Shown piece after piece: positions 6,609 through 61,951 of a stretch of DNA of 64,000 bases. The notes beneath the pieces were generated by a model. The model did no database searches, had not been told where the DNA came from, and saw only the letters and a list, made by a program, of their open reading frames with translations. The DNA is from an uncultured Acidobacteriota bacterium (GTDB lineage Bacteria > Acidobacteriota > UBA6911 > RPQK01 > JAPXNP01). The DNA is taken from the NCBI GenBank assembly GCA_964524795.1, contig CAZGEH010000003.1:78675-142674 (forward strand), read 5' to 3'. Made by a program: the position numbers and the translations under genes. Position 1 is the first letter of the stretch; every line of letters starts with the position of its first letter.

Positions 6609-7597
6609 ATCCGAGGGCAGACACACCCGTTTTCCCGGGTACTCCACCGAACCCGCAGGCACCGGCGGTCGAAGCGGTGGGGCTGACCCGGCGCTTCGGG
6701 CCGGTGACCGCGGTGGCGGGACTCGACCTCACGGTCAGCCGCGGTGAGATTTTCGGGCTGGTGGGTCCGGACGGAGCGGGCAAGACCACGGTGATGAGGT
6801 TGCTGTGCGGTCTGCTGAACCCCGACGGGGGCCAGGTGACAGTCGGCGGCCGGGATGTCTCCTCGGACCCGGCGGGAGTCCGCGACCGGATCGGATACAT
6901 GCCCCAGCGATTCGGCCTCTATCTGGACCTAACGGTGGAGGAGAACCTGGACTTCTACGCCGATCTGTTCGGGGTCGGCGACCCGTTGCGCGGCGAGCTG
7001 ACGGAACGGTTGCTGAGGATGACCCGGATGTCCGCTTTCCGGCGCCGGCCCGCCGGACAGCTCTCGGGCGGCATGAAACAGAAACTGGGGCTGATGTGCG
7101 CGCTGCTGCACCAGCCCGAGGTGCTGTTCCTGGATGAACCGACCAACGGGGTCGATCCGATCTCCCGGAGGGACTTCTGGGTCATTCTTTACGAACTGGT
7201 CAAGGGGGGGCTGACCGTTGTGTTGTCCACCGCGTACCTGGATGAAGCCGAACGTTGCAACCGCGTAGGGCTGATGTACCGGGGCAGACTGGCGGCCTGT
7301 GACTCGCCGGGGAAACTGGGGCGGCACGTGGAGGAGCCCTGTGTCGCGGTCCGGACCTCGGACCAGCGCCGGGCACGGGAGCTGCTGCAGACCACCCCGG
7401 GAATCCTGGCGGTGATTCCAGCGGGAGCGTGGTTGCACGTGTTCGCCACCCCTGAACTGGTGGAGACGGAGGAGCTGGGCCGGCGTCTGGCGGGCCTGGA
7501 TCCGGTGGAGGTGGAGCCGATCCGGCCTTCCGTGGAGGACCTTTTCATCGCCCTGGTGCGGAAGCAGGAGCTGAGACATGGCCACGCCCGCGGTTGA
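6605..7597 (+). CDS. ABC transporter ATP-binding protein (first of two)
   Basis: Walker A GPDGAGKTT, signature LSGGMKQKLGL, Walker B LLFLDEPT. Confidence 0.9.
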   Translation: MNPRADTPVFPGTPPNPQAPAVEAVGLTRRFGPVTAVAGLDLTVSRGEIFGLVGPDGAGKTTVMRLLCGLLNPDGGQVTVGGRDVSSDPAGVRDRIGYMPQRFGLYLDLTVEENLDFYADLFGVGDPLRGELTERLLRMTRMSAFRRRPAGQLSGGMKQKLGLMCALLHQPEVLFLDEPTNGVDPISRRDFWVILYELVKGGLTVVLSTAYLDEAERCNRVGLMYRGRLAACDSPGKLGRHVEEPCVAVRTSDQRRARELLQTTPGILAVIPAGAWLHVFATPELVETEELGRRLAGLDPVEVEPIRPSVEDLFIALVRKQELRHGHARG

Positions 7598-8522
7598 AAC
7601 AGTGGAACTGACCCGGCGTTTCGGCTCCTTCACCGCCGTGGACCGGGTGTCGCTGACGGTCCAGCAGGGGGAGATCTTCGGTTTCCTCGGTTCCAACGGG
7701 GCGGGGAAGTCGACCACCATCCGGATGCTCTGTGGACTGCTGCAGCCCACCTCCGGCCAGGCGCGGGTGGGTGGGTTCGATGTCTACCGGGAACCGGAGA
7801 AGATCAAGCAAAGCATCGGTTACATGTCCCAGCGGTTCTCGTTGTACGACGAACTGTCGGTGGAGGAGAACCTGGACTTCTTCGCCGGGGTCTATAGCGT
7901 CCCCAGCCGGCTGCGGGAGGCGCGCAAGAACGAGCTCCTCGAAGAAATGGGCTTGCGGGAAATGCGGCGGCGCAGCACCTCCGTGCTGCCGGGCGGCCTC
8001 AAGCAGCGGCTGGCGCTGGCCTGCGCCGTGCTTCATGAACCGCCGATCCTGTTTCTGGATGAGCCGACCTCGGGCGTGGATCCGGCGGCCCGCCGGGAGT
8101 TCTGGGACCTCATCTACCGGCTGGCCGAAGCCGGGCGCACGGTGTTCGTCACCACCCACTATATGGACGAGGCCGAGTACTGCGGCCGGCTGGCCCTGAT
8201 GGACGCCGGACGCGTCATCGCCCTCGACAGCCCTGACGGGCTGCGCCGCGGTCTGGCCGGGGAACACTTCATTCAGCTTGAGGTCAGCGATGTGCTGCAG
8301 GCGGTGCGGGCAACCGCCGACCTTCCGGGTGTTCGGGATGCCGCCATCTTCGGCGGGGGGATCCGGCTGCGGGTGGCCGACCCGGAACAGGCCGCCCGGC
8401 AACTTCCGCCCTTGCTGGCGTCGCGGGGAATCGCGGTACTGGACATCGGGCAGGTGGAGCCGGGCATCGAAGATGTCTTCGTGCTGAAAGTGGAAACCGA
8501 ACGGCGGCGGGAGGGATCGTGA
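7578..8522 (+). CDS. ABC transporter ATP-binding protein (second of two)
   Basis: Walker A GSNGAGKSTT, signature LPGGLKQRLALA, Walker B ILFLDEPTSG. Together with the preceding gene this resembles the split halves of a YbhF-type tandem ATPase. Confidence 0.9.
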   Translation: MATPAVETVELTRRFGSFTAVDRVSLTVQQGEIFGFLGSNGAGKSTTIRMLCGLLQPTSGQARVGGFDVYREPEKIKQSIGYMSQRFSLYDELSVEENLDFFAGVYSVPSRLREARKNELLEEMGLREMRRRSTSVLPGGLKQRLALACAVLHEPPILFLDEPTSGVDPAARREFWDLIYRLAEAGRTVFVTTHYMDEAEYCGRLALMDAGRVIALDSPDGLRRGLAGEHFIQLEVSDVLQAVRATADLPGVRDAAIFGGGIRLRVADPEQAARQLPPLLASRGIAVLDIGQVEPGIEDVFVLKVETERRREGS

Positions 8523-49815: not shown

Positions 49816-51939
<2,124 letters not shown>

Positions 51940-51943
<4 letters not shown>

Positions 51944-53904
51944 AAAGGATCGCTCTGCTGGTGTTGCTGGGTGGGGTGGCGGCGATGGCGGCTCTGAGCC
52001 TGGAATCCCCGCTGTCGGCACCCAGAGTGATTGTGCTGGGGATCGATGGCATGGACCCGCGGCTGCTGCAGCGGTTCATCGATGGGGGAGACTTGCCGCA
52101 TTTCAAGGAGCTGGCGGCAAGAGGCGGCTTCACGCCGCTGCAGACGACGATGCCGCCGCTGAGTCCGGTGGCGTGGTCCACGTTCATCACGGGTACCCTC
52201 CCCCAAAGCCACGGAGTGTTCGATTTTCTGCACCGGGATCCCGTGCGGCTACTGCCGGAATCCGCCATGGCCAGAACCACCCCGCCCGGCTGGACGCTCT
52301 CTCTGGGTTCATGGGTGATCCCGCTGGAAGCCGGCAAGATCGAACAGCTCCGCCAGGGCCGGGCTTTCTGGCAGTACCTCTCGGAGCGCAAGATCCCGGC
52401 CACCATATTCCGGATGCCGGTGAACTTTCCACCCGTGGAGGCGGGACATGCCTTGTCCGGAATGGGAACGCCGGACCTGCTGGGAACTTCCGGCACGTTT
52501 ACGTTCTATACCAGCGGCGCCGTGCCGGAGCATGAGGTTTCAGGCGGGCGGATCGCCCCGGTGAAGGTCGAGAGTATGCAGGCGGTCATGAAGCTGGAGG
52601 GCCCCGCGAACACTTTCCGGCTGCTGCCGTCACCGCAGGGGAAAGCGGAGCATCCGCTTCTTGTGGTCGAGCTGTCGGCGGATCTGGACCCGGAACTTCC
52701 GGCGGTGCGGCTGCAGGTTCAGGGCCAGGAGCTGGTCCTCCAGGAAGGGGAGTGGAGCGACTGGGTCCCCCTGGAGTTCGAGGCCATACCCTACCTGGTT
52801 ACCGTGCATTCGGCCTGCCGCTTCCACCTGCAGCAGGTGCGTCCGGAGTTCCGGCTCTACGTGAGTCCCCTGCAGATCAGCCCTGCATCGCCTGCCATGC
52901 CCATCACCTATCCCGCGGACTGGGCGGGCGACCTTCACCAGCATCTGGGGCTCTTCTATACCCAGGAGTTGGCGGAGGAGACCAAAGGGTTTTCGTCCGG
53001 GATCCTTTCGGGACGCGAGTTCTGGGAGCAGTCCCAGTTCGTGTATCAGGAGCAGCGGAGGATGTTGGACAGCGCCCTGGAGGATTTCAAGGACGGCTTC
53101 CTTTTCTTCTACTTCTCCAGCGTCGATCAGGGTTGCCACATGTTGTGGCGGTACTCCGACCCGGACCATCCGGCGTACGTGGAAGATCCCCCGCTGAGTG
53201 CGGGTATTCGGACCCTGTACCGGGAGATGGACGAGGCCCTGGGCAGGATCCTGGCCGTGGTCGATGATGATACAACCCTGGTGGTGATGTCGGACCACGG
53301 CTTTGCCCCGTTCTACTGGGAAGTCAACCTGAATTCGTGGCTGCTGGACCGGGGGTACGTCAGGCTGGAGGATCCCACCCGGCGGGACGGGTTCACCGCT
53401 TTCGCCAACGTGGACTGGAGCGGTACCCGGGCCTACGCGGTCGGTCTGAACGGACTCTATGTCAATTTGCGGGGACGGGAAGGGAAGGGGATCGTCTCTC
53501 AGGGCAGGGAGTACGAGGCGATCCTGGATCGGATCGAACAGGACCTGCTGGCCATGGTGGACCCGCGTAACGGGAATCGCCCGGTCTCCTATGTGTTGCG
53601 GGGCGGTGAAGCCGCCGGCGCCGCCGGCCGCCGGGGCCCGGACCTCATTGTGGGCTACGCTTATGGTTACCGCAGCTCCTGGAAAAGTCCGCTGGGCGAG
53701 TTTCCGCTCACCATCTTCCAGGACAACCTTGATCCCTGGAGCGGAGACCACAGCATGGATTACCGCCAGGTGCCGGGAGTCCTGCTGAGCAACCGCCGCA
53801 TTACCCTGCCGGAACCGGCGCTTTACGACCTGACGGTGGCGGTGCTGGACGAGTACGGTATCGCCCGACCGGAGGGAATGCTCGGACAGGACTGCCTGGA
53901 CTAA
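51940..53904 (+). CDS. Alkaline-phosphatase-superfamily protein, paralogue of the preceding gene
   Basis: Signal peptide; VIVLGIDGMDPRL…MPPLSPVAWSTFITGTLPQSHGVFDF; VVMSDHGF; SGDHSMD. 4-nt overlap with the upstream gene. Confidence 0.6.
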
Positions 53905-53918
53905 AGGAGGCGAGGCAA

Positions 53919-54110
53919 GTGTTTGGACCTAAAGTGAAGCTGGACAAGGGCCTTTACGAGCGAGTCCGGAAATATGCCGGACTGGCCGGCTACTCCTCGG
54001 TGGACGAGTTTGTGGCTCACGCCCTCGAGAAAGAGCTGGCGAAGCTGGAGGACGCGGGCTCGGAGGAGGAGATCAAGAAGCGCCTCCGAGGCCTTGGTTA
54101 CATTTCGTGA
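53919..54110 (+). CDS. Small ribbon-helix-helix-like protein (63 aa), hypothetical
   Basis: GTG start 9 nt after AAAGGAGG. KVKLDKGLYERVRKYAGLAGYSSVDEFVAHALEKELAKL has a beta-strand plus two-helix RHH-like pattern. Overlaps the next gene by 4 nt. Confidence 0.4.
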   Translation: MFGPKVKLDKGLYERVRKYAGLAGYSSVDEFVAHALEKELAKLEDAGSEEEIKKRLRGLGYIS

Positions 54111-54946
54111 GAGAGGTCATGCCGGTCGTCATTCACTGGGTGAGCACGGGTCTGCGCGAGGTGCTGGACCTCGTGGTCTATCCGCTGGCCGGGCTGGATC
54201 CCGTGTGGGCACTGGCTTTACTGTCCCTCTTGACCGGTCTGGCCATGCTGTGGATTTACAGCCGCTTTTCGGACCAGACGGGCATACGGAGCTCCAAGGA
54301 CAAGATCCGGGGATATCTGCTGGGAGTACGTCTCTTCCAGCATGATGTGAGGGTGGTTCTGGGATTGCAGGCGCGCATCCTCCGGGAAACCCTCACCTAT
54401 TTCCGCCACTCCCTGACGCCGCTGGCCATCATGTTGCTGCCGTTGGTTCTGGTGGTGACCCAGCTTTACCTGCTTTTCGGGCAACGTCCTCTGCAGCCGG
54501 GTACCACGACCCTCCTGCGGGTCCAGGTGGACGCGCCGGACCTGCTCGACAGGGTGAGCCTGGAGGCGTCACCCGCCTTGGAGGTGGAGGCCGGTCCGGT
54601 GCGTGTGTCCAGGACCGGCGAGGCGGTCTGGAGGGTCAAGCCACGGATTGAGGGCCGGCACTCCATCCTGATCCGGGTCGGGGAGCGGCGGATCGAGAAG
54701 GAGGTTTACGTGGGAACCTCCTGGGGTATGGTCTCCAGTCTGCGGACTTCCGACTGGCTGGACCTGCTGCTTTATTCCGGTGAGTCGCCGCTGGACCCGG
54801 AGGCAGGCGTGCGGGCCGTTGAACTCGTCCATCCACCGCAGGAGATCTCACTGGCGGGCTGGAGAACCGACTGGCTGGTCTGTTTCCTGATCTTCTCGAT
54901 GGTCACGGCGTTTGGGTGCAAGGGTTTCTTCGGCGTGGAACTGTGA
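54107..54946 (+). CDS. Integral membrane protein, hypothetical
   Basis: 279 aa; N-terminal TM helices, a central soluble region and a C-terminal TM; no known family recognised. Confidence 0.45.
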   Translation: MREVMPVVIHWVSTGLREVLDLVVYPLAGLDPVWALALLSLLTGLAMLWIYSRFSDQTGIRSSKDKIRGYLLGVRLFQHDVRVVLGLQARILRETLTYFRHSLTPLAIMLLPLVLVVTQLYLLFGQRPLQPGTTTLLRVQVDAPDLLDRVSLEASPALEVEAGPVRVSRTGEAVWRVKPRIEGRHSILIRVGERRIEKEVYVGTSWGMVSSLRTSDWLDLLLYSGESPLDPEAGVRAVELVHPPQEISLAGWRTDWLVCFLIFSMVTAFGCKGFFGVEL

Positions 54947-54952
54947 GGCTCG

Positions 54953-55564
54953 ATGCGTTGGCTGAGATCGATCCGTTACCGGTGGATGCAACCTGTCACC
55001 GTCGTCTCGGGACTGCCCCGGTCAGGTACCTCCATGACAGTCAAGATGCTGGAGGCGGGGGGGCTCCCCGTTTACACCGACCGGGCACGCCGTCCGGATA
55101 TCGACAACCCGGGTGGGTACTACGAGTTCGAAAGGGTGAAGCGCCTGGCGGAAGAGACAGACAAACACTGGGTCGCCGAGTGCCGGGGCAAGGTGCTGAA
55201 GGTTATCTCCTTCCTGCTGCCCGATCTGCCCTCTGAACTGGCTTACCGGGTGGTGTTCATGTCGCGGGATCTGGACGAGGTGGTGGCGTCCCAGAACAAG
55301 ATGCTGCAACGGCGGGGCGAGCCGTTGCAGGATGATGGGGTGGTCAGGCGCATGTTCGAGGACCATCTGCTGCGAATCGGCCGCTGGATCGCGCAGCAAC
55401 CGAATTTCCGGCTGCTGGAGGTGCCGTATGCGGAGGTGGTGCGGTCGCCCGAGCTCCAGGCCCGCCGCATTCGCGATTTCCTGGGCGACCCTCGGCTGGA
55501 TGTCCTGAAGATGGCGGAGGTGGTGAATCCGGAGCTGTACCGCAACCGCTCGGCAAGCATCTGA
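54953..55564 (+). CDS. Sulfotransferase-family protein (PAPS-dependent)
   Basis: VVSGLPRSGTSM is the 5'-PSB P-loop of sulfotransferases (PKSGTTW-like), and RVVFMSRD is 3'-PB-like. 203 aa. Confidence 0.6.
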   Translation: MRWLRSIRYRWMQPVTVVSGLPRSGTSMTVKMLEAGGLPVYTDRARRPDIDNPGGYYEFERVKRLAEETDKHWVAECRGKVLKVISFLLPDLPSELAYRVVFMSRDLDEVVASQNKMLQRRGEPLQDDGVVRRMFEDHLLRIGRWIAQQPNFRLLEVPYAEVVRSPELQARRIRDFLGDPRLDVLKMAEVVNPELYRNRSASI

Positions 55565-55909
55565 GGAGCCACCGCTTCGCCGATTCGAGAGATCCCGCTC
55601 CGGGCACGGCCGGCGCGGTGAGTGCACTCCCGCATCCGCCAGCAGGGCGGAGCGTCGGTGGGAACCGGGGGCCACTGCAATGATTCCGCCGATCCCTCGC
55701 ACCACGCGGATCAACCCGAAGGCCGCGGCCTAAGCCGTGGAATTCGTCTCTGCATGATGGGGTCGGACCACGGCAAGTGATTGATAAAACACGAATTAGG
55801 CCCAGAAAAGATGGCTCCAGAAGGGCCTCGGGAGCCATTTGTACCCCCCAAGAATCGCCTGTAAGGCACTGTGTGTCCCTGAACCTCGCGGCGGCCAGGT
55901 CGGTTCTCT

Positions 55910-56005
55910 GGCACCCCTTCAGGGTGCCGTCCTGGTTGTTGGTCCGTCCGTTCCGGAGGTTTCCGCTCCGCTCTGACCTCCGGCTACTTTCTGGCAACTC
56001 CTGGG
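55910..56005 (+). repeat. Copy B of the ~100-nt structured repeat
   Basis: GGCACCCCTTCAGGGTGCCGTCCTGGTTGTTGGTCCGTCCGTTCCGGAGGTTTCCGCTCCGCTCTGACCTCCGGCTACTTTCTGGCAACTCCTGGGGGA; more than 85% identical to copies A and C. Confidence 0.6.
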
Positions 56006-56349
56006 GGATGCTTCCGGCTGGGCTCACGTCGGACGGGCGTCCATACCGGCCATGGTTCGGATGACTCTCTACACCGGTGAAGATGCGGTAGCCAAAGCCC
56101 CTGGTCTGGCACAGAGGGGGCTGCCCGCCGTACGACCAATCCAAATAGTGGGCACGAGACCCGGCGGCTTGCGGACCCGTGTTGGCTGTATGTAGTCTGG
56201 GACTCGCTCGGGACCGCATCGGGTATCGTCGGCGTCCAGAACGCCGCCGCGCGCTGGACGACACTCAACGCGAGACCATGGAGGCACGGTCTTTCGAGAT
56301 CCTTGCGGATGTGATTGCTGCAGCCGCCTAGAAGGAGACCCGGTGGGTG

Positions 56350-56670
56350 TGAATGCGCAAAGGCTCGTGACGGAGATGGCGGAGATAAAGGAAGCGCGGC
56401 AACGTTCTGCGGACGGTCCCCTGAGGGGTGTACCTGTTCGGCTCTTAGGCGCAGGGGAAAGCGGACGAGGAATCGGATGTGAACGTGCTTGTGGTCGTCG
56501 ATGATTACGGCAGCTACGGCGCTGAAGTCGAACGGACTGGAACGCTCGGTGCGGAACTTCCGTTGCGGCAGGGGGTGAGCGGGAGCATAGTGTTTTTCCG
56601 GGAATGCGAGTGGCGCGGAGGCGATACACCGTCTCTGGTCACCGTGGGGCAGCAGGCGATCACCGCATGA
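56350..56670 (+). pseudogene. Degraded MNT-type nucleotidyltransferase (antitoxin) paralogue with an in-frame stop and a frameshift
   Basis: The region reads …QRLVTEMAEIKEARQRSADGPLRGV(Y)LFGS*AQGKADEESDVNVLVVVDDYGSYGAEVERTG…, versus intact …LKERLAQLYGERLRGVYIFGSYARGEADEESDLDVLIVLDQVENYSAEIDRTG…. It is followed by an 11-codon stub MKEATRKLLEW that matches the HEPN start MKEEARKLLEK. Confidence 0.55.
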
Positions 56671-56703
56671 AGGAGGCAACCCGTAAGCTTCTCGAGTGGA
56701 CCC

Positions 56704-57024
56704 ATGAAAGAGAAATTACAAGTGGTTCTGGCAAAGCTCAAGGAGAGACTTGCGCAACTCTACGGAGAAAGGCTCAGGGGGGTGTACATCTTTGGTTCAT
56801 ACGCCCGCGGCGAAGCCGATGAGGAGTCGGACCTGGACGTGCTCATCGTCCTGGACCAGGTTGAGAACTACTCGGCCGAGATCGACCGGACCGGCGAAAT
56901 CGTCTCGGCGCTATCGTTGGAATCAGGCTTTACCATCAGCCGGGCATTCGCCTCCGAGGAGCGCTGGCTGGCGGACCAGACGATGTTTTTCTTGAACGTA
57001 CGTGAGGAAGCGGTGTCGGTATGA
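56704..57024 (+). CDS. MNT-family nucleotidyltransferase (minimal NTase; antitoxin of an HEPN/MNT module)
   Basis: GSYARGEADEESDLDVLIV is the Pol-beta-type GS…D.D motif. 106 aa. Its stop overlaps the ATG of the downstream HEPN gene (ATGA). Confidence 0.8.
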   Translation: MKEKLQVVLAKLKERLAQLYGERLRGVYIFGSYARGEADEESDLDVLIVLDQVENYSAEIDRTGEIVSALSLESGFTISRAFASEERWLADQTMFFLNVREEAVSV

Positions 57025-57406
57025 AGGAAGAAGCCCGAAAGCTCCTGGAGAAGGCGGAACGCGCCCTGGAAGCGGCGCAAAGGCTGCACCGAGACGGGGA
57101 CTACGAATCCGCGGCGGGACGGGTGTACTATGTAATGTTTCACGCGGCTCAGGCCCTGCTGCGGCAGCAAGACCTGCGTTATCGCAAGCATGCAGGGGTC
57201 CACGGTGCCTTCGGGGAGCACTTCGCCAAGACCGGTCTGCTAATGTCAAGTACCACCGTTACTTGCTGGATGCCTTCGATGATCGCCTTCGCGCGGATTA
57301 CGAGATTGACGGCCTCGCAGGGCTGGGGCGTCGCTCTGCGGGCTTACTCCACGGTTTCAGGCTGAGTCGACGCCTCCAGCGCCGGGCACACGCGGCGCCG
57401 CCCTGA
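57021..57406 (+). pseudogene. HEPN-domain toxin gene, frameshifted (-1 near 57245)
   Basis: Frame 1: MKEEARKLLEKAERALEAAQRLHRDGDYESAAGRVYYVMFHAAQALLRQQDLRYRKHAGVHGAFGEHFAKTGLL, with the R-x4-H HEPN motif. It then loses similarity. The canonical continuation …KYHRYLLDAFDDRLRADYEIDG… is in a neighbouring frame (ORF 57002..57406). Confidence 0.7.
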
Positions 57407-57575
57407 CAAGCCGACCGCCCGTGGCTCAGATCTCGGCCGTGCTACCTTCGCGGGCGGGATCGTCCCCATCTGGCACCGAGAGAAGAGTTCTTCTGTCCTG
57501 CCGGCGATTCTTTGCCGGGAGAAGGGCACGGAGGATCGGCGCCTGCCGTCCCACCCGGGCAAAACGCCCGGGCCT

Positions 57576-57672
57576 GGCACCCCTTCAGGGTGCCGTGCTG
57601 GTTGTTGGTCCGTCCGTTCCGGAGCTCTCCGCTCCGCTTCGACCTCCGGCTACTTTCTGGCATCCCTCCGGG
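57576..57672 (+). repeat. Copy C of the ~100-nt structured repeat
   Basis: GGCACCCCTTCAGGGTGCCGTGCTGGTTGTTGGTCCGTCCGTTCCGGAGCTCTCCGCTCCGCTTCGACCTCCGGCTACTTTCTGGCATCCCTCCGGGA, preceded by a CCCGGGCaaaacGCCCGGG hairpin as in copy A. Confidence 0.6.
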
Positions 57673-57841
57673 ATGCCTCGTTCAGCCTCGTTCACTGGCA
57701 TTCGCGGCGCTCTTGTCTGGTCTATCCCCGCCTCTCCAGCTGGCTTGGGGTGCCTGCCGCCGCTTCGGTTTGCTACAATCTGCAACTTGGGGCATTTGCC
57801 TCGGAGGAACCAAGGAACCACAATCGGGAGGGGGAAGAGAA

Positions 57842-58300
57842 ATGAGACGTTTGGTTACGCTGCCCCTCGTGGTGCTGTTGAGTGCCGGTATCTTCGCAGC
57901 GTGTCAGCGCGTCGAAGCACCGGCTCCGTCGCGCGTCGAGCCTGCGAAAGATGGGATCTTCGTGCATATCAAGTCTGGACCGGATGATGCTCACAGCGTG
58001 CTCATGGGATTGCACCTCGCGCAGAGGATGGCCTCAGACCGTGACGTTTTCGTTTACTTCGACGTCAAGGGCATCAATGTGGTCCTCAGGTCCTCGGAAG
58101 ACCTTACCTTGGAGCCCTTCGGGTCGGCCCGGGAGATGATCGCCGACCTTCTCTCACGGGGCGTTTCAATCCAGGCTTGCCCCGGTTGGCTGAAAGCTCT
58201 CGGCCACACGCCGGAAGAACTTTTGGAGGGAGTCCAGGTGGCCGACAAGGACGATTTCTTCACCTTCACCGCCGGGCGGATTCTGACGATTGACTACTAG
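57842..58300 (+). CDS. DsrE/DsrF-like (YchN-fold) lipoprotein, hypothetical
   Basis: RBS GGGAGGGGGAAGAG; signal peptide MRRLVTLPLVVLLSAGIFAAC (lipobox). IFVHIKSGPDDAHSVLMGLHLAQ…VFVYFDVKGINVV…IQACPGW resembles the DsrE/DsrF-like sulfur-relay fold. Local GC is lower than the surrounding sequence. Confidence 0.45.
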   Translation: MRRLVTLPLVVLLSAGIFAACQRVEAPAPSRVEPAKDGIFVHIKSGPDDAHSVLMGLHLAQRMASDRDVFVYFDVKGINVVLRSSEDLTLEPFGSAREMIADLLSRGVSIQACPGWLKALGHTPEELLEGVQVADKDDFFTFTAGRILTIDY

Positions 58301-61840: not shown

Positions 61841-61951
61841 ATTACGTTCACAACCTGCGGATAGTCAGCCTAAGGCCCTTCTGGAGCCCCTCTTCGACGG
61901 CTAAGCTTTGTCATTTGAGTCTCTTGCCGCGGTCCGACCCCATTTGGCGTC

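Follow-up and report, generated by a model that had tools for sequence, protein, structure and literature searches.

The window, by which we mean the whole 64-kb stretch of DNA analysed, carries the remnant of MNT/HEPN two-gene toxin-antitoxin (TA) modules, and not a working one, with a sulfotransferase-like gene (54953-55564) to its left and a DsrE-like gene (57842-58300) to its right. Four elements follow one another on the plus strand: the pseudogene of a first MNT gene (MNT1psi, 56343-56670), the stub of a first HEPN gene (HEPN1, 56667-56696), an intact minimal nucleotidyltransferase gene of the antitoxin type (MNT2, 56704-57024) and a broken second HEPN gene of the UPF0332/PF05168 type (HEPN2, 57021-57312). 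We class the locus as a remnant because an intact toxin ORF of ~127 aa is missing, HEPN2 having suffered deletions and HEPN1 being reduced to 10 codons. A first-pass annotation had described a decaying MNT/HEPN array in three parts with an antitoxin as its only intact gene; all of these parts are present where it placed them, and MNT2 is indeed the sole intact gene of the array. The islet is bracketed by two plus-strand copies of a 100-nt structured intergenic repeat (direct-repeat family D1), namely rep2 on the left (55908-56007) and rep3 on the right (57574-57673, with similarity to rep1 reaching upstream to about 57520), and the repeat also lies upstream of the array in L005, a contig representing a second lineage discussed below.

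The MNT2 ORF encodes 106 aa, the length seen in 105 of 119 close homologues, and matches the Pfam nucleotidyltransferase families PF01909 (NTP_transf_2; 47.9 bits, gathering score 21) and PF18765 (38.7 bits, cut-off 26.9). Its GS-X10-D-X-D motif, GSYARGEADEESDLD, is complete, in line with the earlier description of this gene as intact with a GS...D.D motif. Furthermore, MNT2 scores 178.9 bits against a profile of its family and the L005 variant 181.2 bits, set against a mean of 179.1 +/- 5.4 for the homologues. As far as can be read from its sequence, MNT2 still looks functional.

HEPN2 begins at 57021 and overlaps the MNT2 stop as ATGA (57021-57024), as had been noted, and its repaired translation reaches 57.9 bits against the Pfam HEPN family PF05168 (gathering score 22). 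When intact 127-aa homologues were aligned by tblastn, residues 1-74 fell at 57021-57242 and residues 75-97 at 57242-57310 in the next frame. A single base has been lost after 57240 (CTGCT-AATG in the window, CTGCTTCATG in L005) at a site outside any homopolymer run, which confirms the -1 frameshift that the first-pass annotation had placed around 57245. That annotation had also drawn the gene as far as 57406. Homology stops at 57312, and tblastn with eight intact homologues, run to look for a HEPN2 C-terminus surviving in a different frame, gave only noise beyond this point. Compared with L005, the window has lost 141 nt here (L005 positions 1451-1591, junction between 57312 and 57313) and with them the final ~30 codons and the stop codon, a deletion that had gone unnoticed. 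Because of this deletion, 57313-57406 is not HEPN coding sequence, and its part up to 57403 on the plus strand is the native sequence downstream of HEPN2, with 87% identity to L005 1592-1683. The motif reported as R-x4-H is in fact R-x5-H (RKHAGVH): an alignment of 12 HEPN family members has an invariant R55-K-H57...H61 and a separate R..DY segment, with no RX4HXY. A search of 5.8 billion proteins returned no intact HEPN2 with more than about 80% identity.

The MNT1 pseudogene, recognised by tblastn with its closest intact relative, P0248, and by Pfam Polbeta/NTP_transf_2 matches that become detectable only once the translation is repaired, starts with a GTG preceded by a GAAGGAG ribosome-binding site. 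Residues 9-27 of P0248 match 56376-56432 in one frame and residues 26-106 match 56425-56667 in the next, the latter with 75% identity, and since the match switches frame there, we place the frameshift at 56425-56432. An in-frame TAG at 56446-56448 occupies the site of the Tyr in the relatives' GSYARG. Both of these lesions had been recognised in the first reading of the sequence, which did not mention that the catalytic DxD has changed to DVN (56476-56484), so that the motif is destroyed (GS, stop, ...DVN). The stop of MNT1psi overlaps the start of the HEPN1 stub as ATGA. A fused stub of this kind had been proposed with a length of 11 codons; the stub itself stands, and its HEPN homology covers the first 10 codons (MKEATRKLLE, 56667-56696), beyond which the remainder of HEPN1 is deleted and the MNT2 start follows after 7 nt. 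The 12-mer AAGCTTCTCGAG is found both in the stub and at the beginning of the HEPN gene that partners MNT in an MNT1-type module (L119), and the deletion junction between MNT1psi, the HEPN1 stub and MNT2 is identical in L005.

The exact MNT2 protein is also encoded on contigs L001-L004, which come from three metagenomes of JGI (3300037465, 3300043267 and 3300043178) and the SRA run SRR12686701, are 99.9-100% identical to the window in DNA over 1.1-12.3 kb and carry every lesion; L003 stops at 57676 and L004 at 57680. We conclude that the lesions are not assembly errors, because they are the same in four independent assemblies and because different lesions occur in the second lineage. The reading in which the stop and frameshifts are sequencing or assembly errors, or in which HEPN2 is expressed by programmed frameshifting, so that one or both modules would be intact, draws some encouragement from the probable origin of the window in a metagenome-assembled genome. 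Error in the frameshift and the stop, a concern raised by the first-pass annotation itself, is excluded by the recurrence of the lesions across the four assemblies, and the 1-nt loss does not lie in a homopolymer run. In addition, the other, 59-nt deletion of the second lineage is reproduced in two samples, programmed frameshifting is unable to restore the ~30 HEPN2 codons lost to the 141-nt deletion, and the catalytic Asp is gone from MNT1psi as well. We regard this reading as effectively refuted and give it next to no credence.

The second lineage was reached via P0241, a non-identical member of the 90% cluster of MNT2, and is represented by L005 and L006, contigs from two further JGI samples that are mutually identical over 1,461 nt. 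L005 aligns to 55783-57403 of the window with an equal architecture, flanking repeats included, and with a flank identity of about 83%. The HEPN1 deletion junction and the MNT1psi frameshift are common to both lineages and are therefore the older events. The TAG of MNT1psi is specific to the window, L005 having TAC at this site together with 9-nt and 6-nt deletions of its own and FTS in place of FGS. In HEPN2, L005 retains the base that the window has lost after 57240 and possesses the native C-terminus, ending in EIDGAFDGEAGAMRIGQVREFIAAARFHLERQG before the stop codon, and it is without the 59 nt corresponding to window 57081-57139. As these lesions are non-overlapping and lineage-specific (1 nt and 141 nt against 59 nt), each lineage inactivated HEPN2 on its own, and both have an intact MNT2. 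The MNT2 proteins of the window and of L005/L006 share 91.5% amino-acid identity, and 8 of the 9 differences lie in variable columns. We note that the persistence of an intact MNT2 in both lineages, with differences mostly in variable columns, speaks against a model of simple decay and fits continued selection too. Metagenome and genome scans for further lineages of the array gave only family members of at most 69% identity from other organisms, and any model of its decay is read from two lineages only.

Comparison of the window with L005 gave nucleotide identities of 76-86% for the flanks and MNT1psi, 95.3% for MNT2 and 96.1% for the HEPN2 pseudogene. Nei-Gojobori estimates from these two lineages yielded a dS of 0.20 and an omega of 0.74 for MNT1psi, which is near neutral, and a dS of about 0.08 and an omega of about 0.2 for the HEPN2 remnant, which points to constraint until recently. 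For MNT2, dS was 0.085 and omega 0.45, from 9 non-synonymous and 6 synonymous differences, a ratio not significantly below 1 (Fisher p=0.13). Three disabling events have struck HEPN2 and none MNT2; the neutral probability of this distribution, calculated by length, is 0.16, which is low but not decisive. Furthermore, the synonymous divergence of MNT2-HEPN2 (about 0.08) is smaller than the divergence of the non-coding flanks (p=0.005) and of MNT1psi (p=0.06). This hints that the MNT2-HEPN2 segment was exchanged between the lineages by recombination more recently than its surroundings, with constraint on codon usage as an alternative account, and the low synonymous divergence means that a timeline of simple vertical descent may be wrong.

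How the two modules came to lie side by side can be addressed by comparing their MNT genes with each other and with genes elsewhere. The first-pass annotation had proposed duplication followed by inactivation of the toxins, and the inactivation has held up, HEPN1 and HEPN2 both being dead. A local tandem duplication of an MNT-HEPN module, or of MNT with the first HEPN codons, followed by decay of the upstream copy, is attractive in that duplicating MNT together with the first 10 codons of HEPN would yield exactly the layout MNT-HEPN(1-10)-MNT-HEPN, and both MNTs belong to the same 106-aa family. The supposed copies are nevertheless only about 60% identical in DNA and 39% in amino acids. A search with the repaired MNT1psi translation found intact 106-aa proteins of other organisms at 63-70% identity, among them P0248, P0250 and P0251, and P0251, from an NC10 MAG, has an intact 127-aa HEPN partner whose start contains the same AAGCTTCTCGAG as the HEPN1 stub. 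Neutral decay adds equally to all distances measured from MNT1psi, and is therefore unable to explain why it lies closer to foreign proteins of another sub-clade than to its neighbour, or to invert that ranking; at the DNA level the HEPN1 stub, too, has its closer match in the HEPN partner from that clade. A duplication origin thus appears improbable. Because MNT1psi is closer to foreign proteins (63-70%) than to MNT2 (39%), the array is, to judge from these identities, a tandem stack of two different modules of one family and not a pair of local copies.

We assign the module, on the basis of its predicted proteins, to the UPF0332-type HEPN/MNT family and not to the HepT/MntA equivalog. The nearest solved structure is PDB 9xbd, a complex of a HEPN protein of 125 aa and a nucleotidyltransferase of 120 aa, and AF0298 (2hsb) belongs to the same group. 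In phmmer comparisons with the 9xbd chains, MNT2 (E=1.3e-16) and reconstructed HEPN2 (E=1.5e-17) aligned nearly end to end. The array resembles UPF0332-type modules (PF05168 with PF01909/PF18765) in gene order, MNT preceding HEPN, in the ATGA overlap, in its Pfam domains and in size (MNT of 106 aa, HEPN of about 127 aa), and hundreds of homologues at 50-77% identity occur in many phyla. It differs from them in that the HEPN partner is dead and the remnant of an older second module is fused upstream.

In the type VII HepT/MntA system, the HEPN protein is of the DUF86 type with an RX4HXY motif and an acceptor Tyr, and the MNT antitoxin, with its GSX10DXD motif, AMPylates the HEPN toxin (PMC11586414; PMC7641770). 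Here, as there, a minimal nucleotidyltransferase antitoxin with GSX10DXD is encoded upstream of a HEPN toxin gene, and MNT2 matches 5yep weakly (E=0.009). The HEPN of the window, in contrast, belongs to PF05168 and not to DUF86/HepT, carrying RKHAGVH and an R.R.DY segment without RX4HXY. MNT2 scored 35.4 bits against the NCBIfam MntA equivalog NF047752, below the cut-off of 60, and for HEPN2 there was no NCBIfam match, HepT included. A literature search on 9xbd/9xbc or 'UPF0332' found no paper, so the mechanism of the UPF0332-type subfamily is taken by analogy: the module logic is likely to be that of an RNase neutralised by AMPylation, as in type VII. PDB 9xbc, a Tyr-to-Phe variant of the 9xbd HEPN inside the R.R.DY segment, hints at a Tyr acceptor in this subfamily as well.

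The surroundings of the islet show that it occupies a variable spot. In L007, a related Acidobacteriota MAG, 89% identity over 51269-55690 gives way to an unrelated hydrolase gene, and L005 has, beyond its right-hand repeat, a TolC-like gene that the window lacks; it is this break in synteny and this extra gene that mark the spot as variable. The base composition of the islet (58-66% GC) does not differ from that of its surroundings, and compositional distinctness was rejected as a feature of it. The 100-nt repeat, with its three hairpins, may possibly be a new structured RNA or a recombination element that moves or exchanges such cassettes. No known RNA family matched it at gathering thresholds, L005 giving an unrelated weak match to DUF805b. 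Two copies of the repeat gave sub-threshold scores with the covariance model of the Acido-Lenti-1 RNA (RF01687, gathering score 37 bits), 23.9 bits for 57646-57675 and 16.1 bits for 1161-1190, with no match at rep2 or in L005. Fold z-scores on the plus strand (-0.5 to -2.8) were not convincing, and a terminator scan picked up a single terminator-like site, within rep2, a yield that does not exceed that of shuffled sequence. Two further candidates were discarded: a basic peptide encoded on the minus strand of the repeat was rejected by eye, differences between copies being mostly non-synonymous, and an integron attC-like repeat was rejected, informally, from the sequence, which has separate hairpins and not one imperfect palindrome. 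Neither the small ORFs of the spacer (56052-56331) nor the ORFs that cross rep3 matched any Pfam family.

We consider it probable that this small, eroding islet of selfish TA genes records two rounds of toxin-first decay, caught at different stages. Two different UPF0332-type MNT/HEPN modules would once have stood head to tail. A deletion would then have removed codon 11 of HEPN1 and all that followed, up to a point 7-10 nt short of the MNT2 start, leaving the first toxin dead, and the orphaned MNT1 would have drifted neutrally, acquiring the frameshift now common to both lineages and subsequently its lineage-specific hits. MNT2-HEPN2 would have remained under constraint for longer, and while this module was live, MNT2 would most likely, by analogy, have neutralised the HEPN2 RNase by nucleotidylylation. 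Finally, HEPN2 would have been knocked out in each lineage, through the loss of 1 nt and of 141 nt, in either order, in the window and through the loss of 59 nt in L005. MNT2 would now be an orphan antitoxin that will probably follow MNT1, and may still look functional because too little time has passed since the loss of HEPN2. Loss of an antitoxin while its toxin is active is lethal, whereas loss of the toxin is harmless or beneficial, and it is from this asymmetry that an order of toxin first and antitoxin later would arise.

The divergence between the lineages fits this order of events, with MNT1psi near neutral, the HEPN2 remnant at an omega of about 0.2 and MNT2 at 0.45. In a census of 36 family loci by tblastn criteria, an ascertainment-biased set, both genes were intact at 32 loci, HEPN was damaged beside an intact MNT at 3, both were damaged at 1, and the reverse combination was found at none. 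A comparable two-step decay, toxin first, has been described in Photorhabdus, with 185 copies in which only the toxin is pseudogenised, 186 in which both genes are and 8 in which only the antitoxin is; such decay is expected to pass through a stage at which the toxin is dead and the antitoxin still intact (PMC13617665). More generally, the locus resembles documented cases of toxin-first erosion (Belot et al., Mol Biol Evol 2026, PMC13617665) and the orphan antitoxins of Klebsiella (PMC7192599) in that the toxin is truncated or deleted and the antitoxin ORF persists, and it shares with the erosion cases of PMC13617665 a small islet in a variable region, the lack of any remaining mobile-element genes and repeated independent loss. 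Those surveys concern type II systems of Enterobacterales, in contrast to the MNT/HEPN module with its enzymatic antitoxin in an uncultured, probably acidobacterial lineage, and, unlike the cases they describe, two successive rounds of decay are preserved here in one locus.

The intact state of MNT2 might instead reflect selection for an orphan antitoxin that acts against a homologous HEPN encoded elsewhere in the genome or on plasmids or phages. The first-pass annotation had already raised anti-addiction or immunity as a role for this antitoxin. Both lineages, having lost HEPN2 through separate lesions, carry an undamaged MNT2, whose replacements are conservative and lie in variable columns and whose omega of 0.45 is below 1. 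MNT2 also retains 36 of the 37 columns in which conservation across 105 homologues reaches 90% or more, with a profile score typical of the family; the one exception, column 81, is Val in 97% of homologues and has changed in both lineages, to Ala in the window and to Thr in L005, which weighs on the other side. MNT2 further matches the PADLOC PDC-S09 profile PDLC04903 over its full length (107.8 bits; residues 2-104 align to positions 2-106 of the 108 in the profile), although this says little about function, as the family is a candidate single-gene defence defined by association. Anti-addiction is, moreover, an accepted concept (PMC13617665; PMC7354431), and the example of the chromosomal ccd of Erwinia chrysanthemi acting against the F-plasmid ccd is, in the form in which PMC13617665 cites it (Saavedra De Bast 2008), similar in that a chromosomal antitoxin is able in principle to neutralise an incoming homologous toxin. 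That classical case involves a complete chromosomal TA system, unlike the lone antitoxin found here.

Several observations weigh against selective retention. The omega of MNT2 does not fall significantly below 1 (p=0.13), MNT1, which was orphaned before it in the same islet, was left to decay, and the 64-kb window contains no other HEPN or MNT gene, including a cognate HEPN for MNT2. Its SD-like sequence is weak, and a promoter scan found none of the sigma-70-like type. An intact antitoxin next to a dead toxin is, besides, the default transitional state. It therefore seems unlikely that MNT2 is being kept by selection in this way, and we hold it similarly doubtful that it serves as a stand-alone nucleotidyltransferase conferring immunity to HEPN toxins of the same subfamily from plasmids, phages or other TA islets. 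If such immunity were real, the repeated, independent loss of the toxin in the two lineages would be adaptive, a way of turning an addiction module into an anti-addiction gene.

For annotation, HEPN2 and MNT1 are best recorded as pseudogenes, and the ORFs of 114 aa and 63 aa that pipelines call here are artefacts. The sequences also allow the ancestral HEPN2 of a little-studied subfamily to be rebuilt. The finding is real but ordinary, and reveals no new mechanism. Its interest lies in the locus as a compact natural record of how a chromosomal TA system dies, toxin first and then antitoxin, with two successive rounds in one locus and parallel toxin loss in two lineages, so that what has been quantified in the type II systems of Enterobacterales would extend to an MNT/HEPN module with an enzymatic antitoxin in an uncultured lineage.

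The position occupied by the toxin-antitoxin islet is a rearrangement hot spot. Synteny between the window and L007, a related Acidobacteriota MAG (GCA_054683035.1), ends at 55690, just 5' of the islet; from L007 position 4429 onward the two differ, the sulfotransferase gene having as its next neighbour in L007 an Abhydrolase_10 gene on the opposite strand. On the other side, the contig of a second lineage carrying the same array (L005, 1754-2377) has a TolC-like gene after the right-hand copy of a 100-nt repeat, where the window has a DsrE-like gene.

This 100-nt repeat brackets the islet in both lineages. A repeat search placed one copy on the forward strand at 1089-1188 of the window, with further forward-strand copies to the left (55908-56007) and right (57574-57673) of the islet, and L005 holds copies at 122-213 and 1681-1787. 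All are intergenic, share 76-88% identity across the window and L005, and lie in every case in the same orientation as the flanking genes. The family is marked by the conserved blocks CCCCTTCAGGGTGCC, TTCCGGAGGTYTCCGC, CGACCTCCGGCTA and TCTGGCA and by up to three hairpins per repeat, and the copies at 1089-1188 and 57574-57673 have some 55 nt further upstream in common. Close to the right-hand copy, at 57676 and 57680, short contigs of other assemblies break off. Compared with Rfam, the repeat returned only Acido-Lenti-1, at sub-threshold scores (23.9 and 16.1 bits; gathering score 37). Possible identities for the repeat are a structured RNA, a REP/MITE-like element and a recombination substrate.

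Further out lies a 21-nt inverted repeat, ATGGGGTCGGACCRCGGCAAG, whose arms (55757-55777 and 61923-61943; 20 of 21 positions matching) form the ends of a 54-nt pair, I1, and enclose not only the islet but also the DsrE-like gene and a GH9 glycoside hydrolase. The left arm coincides with the start, at 55756, of L003, the matching contig of an independent assembly. The inverted repeat could be due to chance, or its arms could mark the two boundaries of a larger variable segment. Elsewhere in the window, a 73-nt direct repeat (6890-6962 and 7815-7887; 78% identity, spacing 925 nt) probably reflects two paralogous coding segments.

Within the islet, the MNT2-HEPN2 segment at 56794-57312, in which MNT2 is the only intact gene and HEPN2 the broken toxin gene, is 96-97% identical to L005, synonymous sites included (dS ~0.08), whereas the flanks and the upstream pseudogene MNT1psi are 76-86% identical. 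This difference suggests either that the segment was recently exchanged by recombination or that its synonymous sites are constrained. Two ORFs predicted here by gene callers in public assemblies, one of 63 aa (P0249) at 56479-56670 and a 114-aa 'UPF0332 family' ORF (P0016) at 57021-57365, are not genes: the first is a piece of MNT1psi, the second a piece of the frameshifted HEPN2.

When MNT2 is compared with 105 homologues, the sole conserved column from which it departs is codon 81 (56944-56946), which is Val in 97% of them. The two lineages differ at this position, the window having Ala and L005 having Thr. In HEPN2, the L005 lineage has Cys (~1438-1440, equivalent to window 57299-57301) in place of the Tyr in the conserved RADYEID segment. 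PDB 9xbc differs from 9xbd, a solved complex of HEPN and nucleotidyltransferase from this subfamily, in having Phe instead of the equivalent Tyr, and the RADYEID Tyr may therefore be where this HEPN subfamily is modified or an active-site Tyr.
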